Assembly (NCBI GenBank): GCA_963833985.1
Contig: CAWIAD010000002.1
Coordinates: forward strand, 5,376,001 to 5,440,000
Reading direction: 5' to 3'
Length of the DNA: 64,000 bases
Origin: an uncultured Planctomycetaceae bacterium
GTDB lineage: Bacteria; Planctomycetota; Planctomycetia; Isosphaerales; Isosphaeraceae
Shown here one piece after another: positions 38,688 through 48,534 of this stretch; the stretch's first letter is position 1; each line of letters opens with the position of its first letter. The notes under the pieces were generated by a model. It was not told the origin of the DNA and did no database searches. It saw only the letters and a program-made list of their open reading frames with translations. The position numbers were made by a program, and so were the translations under genes.

Positions 38688-38900
38688 GTGGGTCAAGATT
38701 CCAATCTTGACATTAATTGAGATAATCATAAATTGAATTGAAGAGACACGATCGGAATCGTGTCCCACGACAGAAGTGACACGATCGGAATCGTGTCCCA
38801 CGACAGAAGTGACACGATCGGAATCGTGTCCCACGACAGAAGTGACACGATCGGAATCGTGTCCCACGACGGAGGAGACACGATCCCAGGCTTGTACCAC
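38688..38900. repeat. REP-like doublet with a tandemly amplified arm (33-bp unit x4 plus one degenerate copy)
   Basis: GTGGGTCAAGATTCCAATCTTGAC (38688-38711), AT-rich spacer, then GACACGATCGGAATCGTGTCCCAC at 38745, 38778, 38811 and 38844 with linker GACAGAAGT; degenerate copy at 38877. Confidence 0.9.
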
Positions 38901-44114: not shown

Positions 44115-44235
44115 GACCGAGATCGGGTCGCTGCCGGGACGGCGTTTCCCGGACCTAAGCAGATCCGCAGAAGTCTTTGGACAGGATTGCCGTTCGCTTG
44201 CCCAGGGCTGAGAGCCCTGCCTGGCCGCTCTCCTC

Positions 44236-44364
44236 GTGGGGTACGATTCCAATCGTGCCTTCCCATTCTCGTGGGCTACGATTCCAATCGTGCCTTCCCA
44301 TTCTCGTGGGCTACGATTCCAATCGTGCCTTCCCATTCTCGTGGGCTACGATTCCAATCGTGCC
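44236..44364. repeat. tandem REP-like array (35-bp unit x4)
   Basis: GTGGG(G/C)TACGATTCCAATCGTGCC plus linker TTCCCATTCTC at 44236, 44271, 44306 and 44341. Confidence 0.92.
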
Positions 44365-44563
44365 TTCCCTGATCCATCAGATCGAAGAAGTGGCACGAAG
44401 TAGGGTCGAGGTGTGGCGCGGTGGGCTCGAGTCGATGGCTCGGCTGGGCCTCGTTTCCACACCCCGCTCATCAAACTGGATCGGCGGTTTTCCCGCATCC
44501 AGCTTTCGGACAAGGCTTGTCTCATCGGTTGAGTTCACACGTTCGCTCACGAAACCATCGCGG

Positions 44564-45163
44564 CTAGGTTCGTTGCAGCTGGTAAAGATGCAACTCCTGG
44601 TGCAGGTATCTGTCAGGGTAGCGTCTGAGCCCCTGACCCGGCACCTTGAACTTCGCACACAACCACTGACGTACCCGGTAGCGGACGTGGTGGTTGACTT
44701 GGCGATAGGCTGGGCTCACCGTTCCGATGCGAAAATAGTTGGACCAACCGCGTAACTTGCGATTGATCCGACCAATCTGCATCTCGACGTCCTGTCCAGT
44801 GGTCTGGCGCGTCGTCATCGCACTGATCTCGCTGCACAGCCGAATGATCTTCTTCCGCGATGGGCGTGACCCTATGTAGGATCGGCCCGTTCGTCGGTCG
44901 TAGTTCCGGCCGAGGGTATAACCCAGAAAGTCGAACGTCTCCTCAGGCAGGTGGCACAGCCGCGTCTTGGTCTCGTTCACCGTTAACTTCAGCCTGGACA
45001 TCATCTTCCGCATCACCGTCATGGCCTCTTCGGCCGTGCCGCGACAGCAGATGACGAAGTCGTCCGCATAGTTGACGATTCGCGCGACCAGACGCCGCTC
45101 GTGTCCACCAGTCTTCCATCCCTTCACAAATCGTCGCATGTAGATGTTGGACAACAATGGTGA
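44564..45163 (-). pseudogene. ltrA: group II intron RT/maturase, 3' half
   Basis: SPLLSNIYM, IVNYADDFVI, NETKT, FDFLGY, domain X LRGWSNYF. Confidence 0.92.
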
Positions 45164-46817
45164 GATCACGCCCCCAACAATGTTGCGAACTACGTTGTTG
45201 GGGGCCTTTCTCAAAAGGGGACGGACTGACCCGATACACGATGCGGACCTCCTGCTCGTCGATCTCGACCTTCTTCACCAAGGCCCGAACCACCTCCCGT
45301 CGCGTGGCCCAGTCCGGCTCTTGCAACCCTTGCGAGACGCGACGTGCGAACTCCTCCAACTGACCGATCACCAGTCGCAATTCCGCCTCTTGGGCGGCCT
45401 CGCCGATTCGTTGTCGATGCTCCTCCGCCAATCTCGAGAGGCGCGTCCTTGCCGCCGAGATCCGGGGCTCGAACTCCGATTTGTCGAGCAACCCGTCGCC
45501 GTAAGCATCGATTAATCGAGAAATCATCTTTTTCACATTATTTATCAATTTGCCGAGATGCTCCACCTCCTGATTCGGCCCGCCCTGGGCACCCTGCAGC
45601 CGCCGCTCGTACTCCTCCCGGACCCGCTCCGGCTCGGACAGGAGACCTCGTAAGTCCTCCCAGACGGCAGCGTCAAGGATATCGGTGCGGATCTGCTTGT
45701 TCCAGCAGAGGCGCTGCCCGCCGAAACGATAGGCGTCAGAGCCCGTGCAACGGTAGTACGCGTAGCGGACCCTACCCTTGCCCTCGAACGCGGCTCGGCT
45801 CGTCGGCTTGCCGTAGCAGCCGTAGCCGCAGCGCTTGCAGACGACCAGGCCCTGGAGCAGATATCGGCCACCGCCGGGCCGGTCGCGACGGCGTTGCCGG
45901 TTCTCTTCAAGCTGGGCCTGGACAGCCAGGAAGAGGTCTTCGCTCACCAGCCCGGGGACTTCAATGAAGATTTGATCTTCCGAGGATGTATCAACCCGTG
46001 AGACCGGTCGCCGGGAGTGTTCGGGGCGGCCTCGCTGCGGGCGGAGGCGTTGAGGTTTGAACTCACCTGAGCGCGTCTTGCCGAAGGCCGCGGTCCCCTT
46101 GTAGGCAGGGTTCTTGAGGATCAACCAGACCGTCGCGCGATCCCAGGCCGATTTCCCGGTCCGCGTCGGGATACTGTCGCGCCGGAGGCGTCGGCACACC
46201 TCGCCGATCGAGCACCGTTCCTGACCCACCCATTCGAAGATCTTCCGCACGACCCGGGACTCTTCAGCGAGGACCTGATAACGCGCCTCGCCACCTCCCT
46301 CGTGCTTGCCGATGTAACGGTAGCCGTACGGCGCGCCGCTGAGGACGTTGACCGAACCGCGGCGGGCGGCGTGTTGCTTGCCCCTGCGGCAACGCTCCAT
46401 GATCTTGGCGCGCTCGTATTCCGCGATCATTCCCTGGACCTGAAGCAGCAGGTCGGCTTCCGGACTGCGGCCGACGGGGTTGCGCAAGAAGACGACCTCG
46501 ACACCGCACCGGATAAGTTCCTCAAGGATCAAGACCTGATAGGCATACTTGCGTGAAAGTCGATCCGGATCGAGCATATAGAGGCGGTCGATGGCTCCAG
46601 CGGCGGCTTGGTCCCGAAGTCGCTCGAGTGCCGGTCGGGCCAGGATGTAACCGCTGACGCCGTCGTCCACGAAGTGCAGTTCGGGCTCGCATTCCAAGCC
46701 ATCAGTGGCGATCCGCTGAGTGACCGCCTCGAGCTGGCTGGCGATCGTGTCCTCCTTCTCCTGCTGCTCCCCCGAAACCCGGGCGTAGAGCGCCACGCGG
46801 AGATTGTCCGTGATCAT
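44943..46817 (-). CDS. large serine recombinase (resolvase, recombinase and Zn-ribbon domains); reads through the element end
   Basis: ALYARVS catalytic Ser, DRLSR, APYGY, LLQGLVVCKRCG...YYRC, coiled coil; element-encoded part ends CWGRD at 45165. Confidence 0.93.
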   Translation of the reverse strand: MITDNLRVALYARVSGEQQEKEDTIASQLEAVTQRIATDGLECEPELHFVDDGVSGYILARPALERLRDQAAAGAIDRLYMLDPDRLSRKYAYQVLILEELIRCGVEVVFLRNPVGRSPEADLLLQVQGMIAEYERAKIMERCRRGKQHAARRGSVNVLSGAPYGYRYIGKHEGGGEARYQVLAEESRVVRKIFEWVGQERCSIGEVCRRLRRDSIPTRTGKSAWDRATVWLILKNPAYKGTAAFGKTRSGEFKPQRLRPQRGRPEHSRRPVSRVDTSSEDQIFIEVPGLVSEDLFLAVQAQLEENRQRRRDRPGGGRYLLQGLVVCKRCGYGCYGKPTSRAAFEGKGRVRYAYYRCTGSDAYRFGGQRLCWNKQIRTDILDAAVWEDLRGLLSEPERVREEYERRLQGAQGGPNQEVEHLGKLINNVKKMISRLIDAYGDGLLDKSEFEPRISAARTRLSRLAEEHRQRIGEAAQEAELRLVIGQLEEFARRVSQGLQEPDWATRREVVRALVKKVEIDEQEVRIVYRVSPSPFEKGPQQRSSQHCWGRDLTIVVQHLHATICEGMEDWWTRAASGRANRQLCGRLRHLLSRHGRRGHDGDAEDDVQAEVNGERDQDAAVPPA

Positions 46818-47182
46818 GGTTTGTCAAACCCCCCCGACCTTGGACTGGATAGTGTGGACCACAGTCGCGTGGTTGCGGCTGGGTCGCGGCCGATCCAGGC
46901 GCTGCGAAACGACCGGGATCAAGACCTGATATGCACGCGCGATCAATTGCTCCTGAAGCCGAGTGAACTCGAAGTGGCGGGTGACAGGAGGACTGAACGT
47001 GGGCCTCCGTGGGGACGTGATCATGTCGACTCCTCCTCTCCGAGAGCGCGGCCGCCAGCCTGCCTTGGATCGGGATCGAGTCGGGGCTGCCATCCGTGCC
47101 CGTACTTCGGTCGAAGCCGCGATCTGGAAATGACAGAGTCAGGAATCAGGGACGATTTTGCAACATTGTTGGGGGCGTGATC
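45164..47182 (-). mobile_element. compact large-serine-recombinase integrative element (2011 bp between duplicated GATC cores)
   Basis: GATC at 45164-45167 and 47179-47182; perfect 19-bp inverted ends ACGCCCCCAACAATGTTGC (45168-45186) and GCAACATTGTTGGGGGCGT (47160-47178); removal restores the RT reading frame. Confidence 0.93.
46824..47024 (-). CDS. small 66-aa protein of the recombinase element (candidate directionality factor or regulator)
   Basis: RBS GAGGAGGAG before ATG 47024; ends 6 nt before the recombinase start. Function is inferred. Confidence 0.6.
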   Translation of the reverse strand: MITSPRRPTFSPPVTRHFEFTRLQEQLIARAYQVLIPVVSQRLDRPRPSRNHATVVHTIQSKVGGV

Positions 47183-47877
47183 GGTGCACCTTGCGGTGTA
47201 CCCATCCCCTGGTCTTTATTCCGGGTCGTTCGATGGCGCTGCCCCTTCCCGTCGGTTTCTTCCACCGGTGTTTCCAGCCACATCTTGATCAGCCGCAGGA
47301 CGCGACCGTCGCTGATGCGCCGTGACGCCGATTTCATTAACTCGGAATGGGGTATGCTATCGAAATATCCAGATAAGTTCGCGTCCACCACCTCGGTGTG
47401 CCCCGTCTTGAGCAGCCGTTCGACTTCGCGGACGGCGTCCAGGGCGCTGCGCTCCGGGCGGTAGGCGTGTTGTTCCGGCTCCAGGTCGGCCTCGAAGATC
47501 GGCTCCAAGACCAGCACCGCAGCCATCTGCACCACACGATCCTTGATGCAAGGAATGCCCAGCGGCCTTTGCTTGCCATCCCCTTTGGGGATGTACACGC
47601 GCCGCACCGCCTGGGGTTGATACGTCTCCTTACGAAGTTGTTCCGCCAGTTCGTCCAGCCATCGTTCCTTCCCGGACGCCTCGATGTCGGCGAAACTCTG
47701 GCCGTCGATCCCCGGCGCGCCGCCGTTGGCACGGCAGCGTTCGTAGGCGAATCCCAGAACGTCACGTCGATAAATCTTGTCGTACAGGACGTAGAACCGA
47801 TAGTTGGGCGCGTTCTTCGCTTTGGTGTGCAACGCCGTCTGCAACTTCCCGACCTTCAGTGGAGGTGATAGACTCAC
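47179..47877 (-). pseudogene. ltrA: group II intron RT/maturase, 5' half
   Basis: GAPGIDG, RRVYIPKGDGKQRPLGIPCIKDRVVQ, LEPIFEAD, AYRPERSA, YFDSIPH, GTPQGAPI then cut. Confidence 0.92.
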
Positions 47878-48534
47878 GCCAATCTCCCGGCTGTCTGCCG
47901 CTTGTTGCGTTGACCTTGAACCAAGGCCCCTTCCCTCGACCGGAGTTACCCGGCGTCGACGGTACTACGGGCCTCTCCGCCACCCCAGGCAGCCCGGCCG
48001 GTCCCTCGCGGGCGTCCGGTTGAGGGTCACGCGCCCTCACCGCTTGGGGTTTCCCGTGTTGTGTTGATCTCCGTGTGCCGACATGCCGTCGTCAATACCC
48101 CGGTGGCCCGCTGGGTTCTGATCGCTCGTGGGGCGGCCTATTCCAACCGTTTCCCTTTCATCCCCAGCGACGGCGGCCTTCCCCATATTCCAGCAAGGTC
48201 GGCGACCACATTGGACTTTTCGAGGCCTGCTCAACGTTCACTCGCGTTACGGCCTGTCGGTTCGCTGCATCGCCAAGCGACACATCTGTCTCGAAGGCTC
48301 CGACGGTTTCGTCTCCTCCACCGCCGCTCCGATAGCTACCGGCTGGAGCGACCCAGTTGCCGGGTGGGAGTTACACCCACTGAAGACCAACACCTTTCCA
48401 CGGCGCACTGGAATCATGTCCCAAGAAGAGCGGCCTCCCGGCCATCCAGGATCGCATCAACCTGCTGAATGCCTGTCAAAGAACTATTGCGAACCTGCTT
48501 AGAGCGGTTATCACTCGGATCGCAGACTGAGACC

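Follow-up and report, generated by a model that had tools for sequence, protein, structure and literature searches.

A two-gene large serine recombinase element at conserved reverse transcriptase codons of group II introns

Several described systems share features with the element reported here. The Tn5053 res-hunters, IS1111-attC and IS4321/IS5075 are mobile elements that target other mobile DNA, and the sites they use are non-coding. In Tn4451 a single large serine recombinase, TnpX, carries out both integration and excision at a central dinucleotide. The available sections of PMC4430133 describe the same arrangement for TndX of Tn5397, and they also describe a preference of TndX for a conserved coding region, the Fic domain. 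Both transposons have a fixed GA core, and Tn5397 is 21 kb in size. Phage-type large serine integrases (Listeria LI/A118, phiC31, Bxb1 and SPbeta SprA) have a Resolvase, recombinase and zinc-ribbon layout and depend on core identity, one site and a fixed orientation. For the Listeria integrase, a 5-bp shift is the attP/attB rule in the available part of PMC3783163. In the multi-targeting large serine recombinases (LSRs) of Durrant et al., as described in the available portions of PMC10083194, one recombinase cluster uses many target gene clusters with a common DNA motif, and DUF4368 is present in 63% of the multi-targeting clade. The IS607 family consists of IS-sized elements with a serine recombinase.

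The element was found in a window of 64,000 nucleotides, the whole stretch of DNA that was analysed, from an uncultured Planctomycetaceae bacterium (Table 1). The whole insert occupies window positions 45164-47182, has GATC at each end and has 26-nt inverted ends that are complementary at 25 of 26 positions. The initial annotation described a 2011-bp element, and this is the distance between the two GATC. GATC is not the crossover or duplicated core. A 4-bp target duplication was rejected in favor of a 2-bp AT core because an off-target copy at C1:1741772 keeps AT only at both ends and related elements have AT, CT or GT cores; the element proper is thus 2,013 bp. Two ORFs make up the entire coding content, one for a large serine recombinase and one for a 66-aa protein, and no cargo, mobilisation or conjugation genes are present among the ORFs within the element. 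At 2 kb and with no conjugation or resistance genes, it differs from Tn5397. It also differs from the phage-type integrases in having no phage or cargo genes, in its many copies per genome and in its target, which is a gene of another mobile element. In RNA form the arms are able to pair with each other (-46.6 kcal/mol). A search of the element for terminator-like sites on the intron strand gave none, and a sigma-70-like promoter was not found either.

Table 1. Features of the element and its host intron (window coordinates)
Feature	Position	Strand	Basis or remarks
Element proper	45167..47179	-	2,013 bp between AT cores at 47180-47181 and 45165-45166; 11 copies at 99.95-100%, same ends
Left, attL-like end, made up of inverted arm, core and adjacent target base	47157..47182	.	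Inverted pair
Right end (attR-like): inverted arm; also encodes recombinase C-terminal HCWGRD	45164..45189	.	Inverted pair
Large serine recombinase	45165..46817	-	551 codons in element; lacks a stop of its own and continues to 44943; PF00239, PF07508 and PF13408 above cut-offs
66-aa ORF directly upstream of recombinase	46824..47024	-	AGGAGG site; family-wide homologues; 26-row alignment
Host group II intron	44400..48408	-	4,009 nt with element, 1,994 nt without; 5' GTGCG, 3' CTAC; ends fixed by 13 genome copies
Reverse transcriptase (RT) 5' half, codons 1-233, ends PQGAP plus AT of Ile233	47180..47877	-	Rejoined ORF, Pfam/TIGRFAM matches
RT 3' half: ISPLLSN, YADD, maturase domain	44564..45166	-	Rejoined ORF, Pfam/TIGRFAM matches
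Intron domains V and VI, presumed (AGC triad, bulged stem)	44400..44520	-	Fold z = -3.78
Rfam RF02003 (domain I) match inside intron	48242-48382		98.9 bits
35-bp REP-like repeat array beside intron 3' exon; target family of the intron	44233..44369	.	17 empty sites matched in genome

The host is a group II intron, with a GUGCG start, a match to the domain I model, a domain V/VI end and an RT with YADD and a maturase domain. The names domain V and VI are those we assign to the 3' end from general intron anatomy; Rfam RF00029 gave no match there. Both RT halves match RVT_1/TIGR04416 and the 3' half also matches GIIM, and no endonuclease domain was found in the 3' half. The claim that the RT is restored when the element is removed together with one GATC proved correct: the result is a single 432-aa ORF (233+199 codons) containing PQGAP-ISPLLSN and YADD. 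The intron is inserted in a dispersed REP-like repeat between genes, and a strict pattern of this repeat, for which the intron flanks are window positions 44233-44400 and 48409-48430, finds 17 empty intron target sites in the source genome. An ORF translation at window positions 38700-38900 has a short tandem repeat that resembles the same REP-like family. The 13 intron copies with exact ends imply past mobility. Bacterial group II introns often carry broken RT genes.

The recombinase has the Resolvase (PF00239, 102 bits), Recombinase (PF07508) and zinc-ribbon (PF13408) domains in Pfam, the same layout as the phage-type integrases. The catalytic residues S15, D85, R86 and R89, which are the Ser nucleophile and the D-R-x-x-R motif, and the zinc-ribbon residues C327, C330, C357 and C371 are invariant in 26 homologues. 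Weak sequence matches were obtained to the structures of phiC31, YokA/SprA and TP901-1. The length of the protein depends on the site because there is no stop codon inside the element and the reading frame continues through the right end. It is 624 aa in the window copy, 598 aa in the inverted copies and 573 aa at an off-target site, and would be 603 aa in the computed circle. Only the three Pfam domains were detected and DUF4368 is absent, a difference from the multi-targeting LSRs (PMC10083194, available portions) that is not decisive because DUF4368 is present in only 63% of that clade. Although the element is IS-sized like members of the IS607 family, its recombinase is large, scores 25.9 bits against a cut-off of 110 with the IS607 transposase model NF033518, and is not accompanied by TnpB.

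The 66-aa ORF belongs to no Pfam family and its Atlas matches (0.87-0.88) are hypothetical proteins only. It is considered real because it is conserved in homologues, with identities of 17-94% across a 26-row alignment of selected homologues and with R22, A31 and Y32 invariant. Its position and conservation make it a candidate directionality factor or regulator. A 20-nt direct repeat (19/20) at 46526-46545 and 46916-46935 encodes the peptide AYQVLI in both the catalytic domain of the recombinase and the 66-aa ORF; the A and Y of this peptide are invariant in both families.

The source genome contains 11 full copies of the element at 99.95-100% identity, which shows a recent multi-copy spread. 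Nine of the 11 are located at the same intron RT codon, seven along the RT direction and two inverted. The other two are off-target, and one of these is frameshifted; the ORFs are intact in the remaining 10 copies. An additional element arm is present at the start of contig C2, and both contigs of the genome start inside a copy of this repeat. The 13 intron 5' ends comprise nine invaded copies, two intact copies, one decayed intron in which an 81% relic of a different element lies at the same RT site, and one copy at a contig break. One intact copy, C2:2152284-2154277, has an N239S change in SPLLSN at a target base that 31 of 32 invaded sites keep, and is a possible escape allele. A third, unrelated intron RT has a good-scoring site that is empty. 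One element-bearing intron copy has in addition been entered by an insertion sequence of 1.3 kb whose ORF is transposase-like (C2:2147542-2148836; three genome copies). The GC skew of the source genome gave no clear replichores.

Homologous elements were collected in a species-genome scan, the best 80 of 548 related stretches of which make up 79 loci with recombinase identities of 41-97%. An element end was located in 69 of these 79 loci, and 48 of the 69 lie at the RT site PQGxx^[I/L/V]SP. The expectation that flanks of homologues rejoin to the RT PQG motif was therefore borne out for 48 loci and for many unrelated RTs, but the corollary that homologues keep to this target was not, as 21 of the 69 lie elsewhere, including 4 of 23 with at least 70% recombinase identity. 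The placement is not due to chance, since only 412 of 200,000 random genome positions (0.2%) pass the same junction test. The share of RT-site loci is 19/23 at identities of at least 70%, 28/38 at 50-70% and 1/8 below. The 48 loci come from 38 genomes in five phyla (Planctomycetota, Chloroflexota, Pseudomonadota, Acidobacteriota and Spirochaetota) and are related, hence not independent. Fifteen are co-oriented with the RT, 17 are inverted, six are head-to-head with two like RT halves and ten have one end only. The 24 rejoined RTs of at least 300 aa fall into 13 clusters at 50% identity, and Rfam group II intron matches are present at 13 of the 16 RT-site loci scanned. The central proposal of the initial annotation, a cargo-free serine recombinase element with the PQGxxISP codons for a target, is thus upheld across 13 RT clusters. 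Of 20 plasmid matches, the two that were examined, on the TOL plasmid pDK1 and on a Cupriavidus plasmid, are homologues at the same RT site. The pDK1 homologue (NC_014124.1, P. putida) is frameshifted and adjoins a two-recombinase element.

At loci outside the RT site, a scan of 28 selected frames with Pfam confirmed transposase targets of the IS256 type (L108, L112), the IS3 type (L083) and the IS200 type (L085), together with a few chromosomal genes (sulfatase, Fic and acyl-CoA ligase-like genes). A clade with 47% identity in genome G002 is located inside a REP-like repeat and has CT cores. Sister elements with near-identical ends (L108, L112, L113, L083, L085, L118, L057, L061, L062 and L038-L048) have IS256, IS3 and IS200 transposases, apparent intron domain V and REP-like repeats as their targets. 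We take the L118 target to be probable intron domain V from its sequence shape and a nearby Rfam domain I match. The L100 peptide, which has no Pfam match, presumably resembles an IS5 transposase, and the L105 peptide presumably resembles a GIY-YIG nuclease. In a quick tree with open forks, which establishes no root, RT-site elements are found on most branches; four of the RT labels and all non-RT labels on this tree were assigned by hand from the flanks. A second, unrelated large serine recombinase element of 2.75 kb, with a 750-aa enzyme that is 27% identical, was observed at L153:1551-4300 (G041:C1) and also at L154, L155 and L156. Its insertion site in these same RT genes is a different conserved motif, near Y-F-D-T-I-P-H.

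The target offers an account of why this codon is used. Read in the RT frame, the element arm beside the core gives Gly-Gly-Val-Ile, and this arm is nearly mirrored by the codons across the core. The inner 9 bp of the two target arms match the element arm at 65% and 49%. On the SPLLxN side the outer 9-mer of the arm fits best at a 5-6 bp inward shift (0.54 and 0.53, against 0.10-0.41 at other shifts), whereas the PQG-side arm shows no clear 5-bp shift, its best value being 0.42 at a shift of 4. The element resembles the phage-type integrases in having inverted arms of about 24 bp around a 2-bp core, and the 5-6 bp shift of the outer motif on one target arm may correspond to the attP/attB shift of the Listeria integrase (PMC3783163, available part). 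With a matrix for which other genomes served as the training set, the two intact intron copies come first and second and the unrelated intron RT third among 20.3 million positions of the source genome; the two off-target sites score only in the top 0.35% and 2.7%. Both the matrix and the arm matches are partly inflated by conservation of the RT protein and count as support, not proof, of the target mechanism.

The cores indicate that identity between element and target is not required. In 32 two-ended loci the cores are alike in 23 (14 AT/AT, 8 CT/CT and 1 GT/GT) and mixed in nine. With 9/32 mixed cores and with 15 co-oriented and 17 inverted loci, the element departs from the core identity, single site and fixed orientation of the phage-type integrases; with AT, CT or GT cores and an RT motif in five phyla as its target, it also departs from Tn5397 and Tn4451. 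The Cupriavidus plasmid NZ_CP073678.1 carries four elements that are 100% identical over 2,009 nt in four different RT contexts, all in one orientation. The right junction has CT in all four and the left junction has AC or AT. Since CT cannot start the target Ile/Val codon, it must have been supplied by the element, and a core mismatch was tolerated. This plasmid is the strongest case for independent, core-mismatch-tolerant integration. It follows that excision need not restore the RT. Excision from a mixed-core site could leave a two-base scar, and the window copy, with AT at both ends, could be restored exactly.

From these data we propose, with a probability of about 0.85, an IS-sized mobile element that is moved by its own large serine recombinase and targets the RT motif codons. 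The recombinase would excise the element as a circle whose junction (attP) consists of the two inverted arms around the 2-bp core. This circle would integrate at the DNA motif spelled by the codons of P-Q-G-x-x-[I/L/V]-S-P-L-L-x-N, which form a near-palindrome with bases one and two of the I/L/V codon at its centre and resemble the element arms. One protein could therefore bind both half-sites and insert the element either way round. A core match is not needed, as one junction can keep the dinucleotide of the element and the other that of the target. Insertion splits the RT before YADD, so that an invaded intron copy cannot make its own protein. Since different intron lineages conserve the motif and the introns are multi-copy and dispensable, many harmless landing sites are available. 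Identical copies of the element in turn serve as sites of recombination at which introns exchange RT halves. The anatomy, the target, both orientations, the recent multi-copy spread, the independent insertions, the mixed cores and the mosaic flanks are evident from the sequences. The circular form is predicted by analogy with the enzyme family, and we infer the catalysis and the role of the 66-aa protein.

The element would thus operate much as a recombinase transposon of the TndX/TnpX type does, but on the scale of an IS, with a single large serine recombinase that presumably serves both integration and excision at the central dinucleotide (for TndX, PMC4430133, available sections). The nearest precedent for a conserved coding motif as a target is the preference of TndX for Fic-coding DNA in the same source. 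Like the multi-targeting LSRs, it joins one recombinase group to many targets with a common motif, but its targets are homologous positions of one protein family (PMC10083194, available portions). The term "reverse transcriptase" has 0 occurrences in the main text and eight supplements of PMC10083194. In targeting another parasite the element is similar to Tn5053, IS1111-attC and IS4321/IS5075, but the enzymes differ and conserved RT codons are used instead of non-coding sites.

The circle junction was looked for in metagenome contigs with two search patterns, and also in viral contigs, in 401 genomes of the phylum and in the contigs of four sequencing runs (among 15 of 27 joints listed), and none was found; the matches in the source genome are ordinary right junctions, which fit the predicted attP pattern with two mismatches. 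None of 20 sequencing runs contained half of the query words, and they gave no evidence of expression or excision. Assemblers are unlikely to recover a long palindrome when the circle that carries it is rare. The initial annotation had suggested that the element switches the mobility of the intron off and, after excision, on again. The first part agrees with an RT that is broken in 9 of 13 intron copies; for the second part, the search for the junction of an excised circle gave nothing.

It was also suggested that the element, lying in the intron, could move together with it. The element may have entered the intron once or twice in this genome, after which most copies spread as a 4-kb retroelement whose splicing and reverse transcription relied in trans on the RT of intact copies. 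We regard this as tentative, and it would add to targeting by the recombinase, not replace it. Each of the seven co-oriented composites measures 4,009 nt and has exact intron ends, and they are located at different sites whose flanks share the repeat only. Intron position 1245, which is 16 nt from the core, is C in all seven, and the two inverted and two intact copies have A there (Fisher p = 0.028 when 7 are compared with 2 and 0.003 when 7 are compared with 4), although SNPs in these repeats may be polishing artefacts. The existence of two intact RT copies, the lack of a terminator-like site and the pairing of the arms also favor such movement. However, the seven composites have nine variable sites in the intron part and two in the element (p = 0.065), and two SNPs are common to composites and copies that are not co-oriented. 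Element SNP 851 and intron SNPs 1641/1905 occur in all four combinations, so no single tree fits. The argument that seven copies in one direction prove co-movement was rejected because the independent insertions on NZ_CP073678.1 are equally uniform (4/4); a shared orientation is therefore weak evidence. Identical elements are also found in unrelated RTs elsewhere, and in genome G041 three doubly invaded introns have three different RT segments between the elements. Large cargo lowers retrohoming. The suggestion that C at +16 steers orientation was also rejected, since across the family this base does not follow orientation (C in five co-oriented and five inverted).

The G041 introns are three copies of one intron that hold this element and the different 2.75-kb recombinase element, with a 170-nt RT segment between them that comes from three RTs. 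Together with the reciprocal chimeric flanks at L022 and L023 in genome G007 (G007:C63), they indicate that RT halves are shuffled by recombination between copies. RT flanks that are reciprocal chimeras or stand head-to-head were also observed at L058, L060, L063, L065, L092 and L103, and such flanks imply inversions or deletions between element copies. The element could have passed from an occupied intron copy to others through homologous recombination or gene conversion, perhaps after the recombinase had cut the empty site. The sole perfectly linked SNP lies 16 nt from the insertion while the distal SNPs are mosaic, and the flanks in other genomes show recombination between copies, as this explanation would have it. 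But conversion should delete the element as easily as insert it, and it cannot account for copies that are inverted or off-target, or for identical elements in RTs whose divergence precludes an alignment. Among the modes of spread, composite retrohoming is thus a doubtful candidate and conversion a slightly weaker one, and the rest falls to integration by the recombinase alone. It is improbable that the element is a transposon of relaxed specificity whose RT insertions survive only because they are harmless. There are off-target copies, 2 of 11 in the source genome and in relatives those in sulfatase, Fic and acyl-CoA ligase-like genes, but survival bias would not place 48 insertions at one RT codon boundary, and intergenic DNA and the remaining intron are equally harmless. 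One might suspect, from the two contigs that begin inside a copy of this repeat, that the element is an error of assembly or all that remains of one decayed prophage or island. This is the least credible explanation: it is refuted by isolate or complete records of Singulisphaera acidiphila, P. putida pDK1 and Cupriavidus KK10 with the same ends and a size of about 2.0 kb, and by ORFs that are intact in 10 of 11 copies.

A full-text literature search found no published description of the element; closed-access papers, ISfinder and the group II intron database lay outside its scope. The element is real and probably undescribed in print, and gene callers label such elements only as "recombinase family protein". 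A recombinase element in the RT of a group II intron is a parasite of a parasite. The work names a specific and widespread agent that breaks group II intron RTs at one codon, and the source genome catches a burst of it, with nine of 13 intron copies invaded and two intact. It gives a mechanistic account of target choice, in which conserved codons form a near-palindrome, shows that targets have switched to IS transposases and repeats inside one recombinase family, and indicates a route to mosaic RTs. The system is open to testing, since its ends are known, the target is defined and empty sites are present in the same genome. The enzymes are candidate integration tools whose paired sites can be read from sequence. 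A bolder and much less certain reading is that two-gene recombinase elements whose attachment sites are conserved codons of other mobile elements may form a widespread class, and that in group II introns they both ride intron retrohoming in trans and swap RT halves between intron lineages. If true, such elements would naturally hold back the spread of introns and give rise to chimeric RTs, and their integrase would be compact, core-tolerant and predictable in its target.
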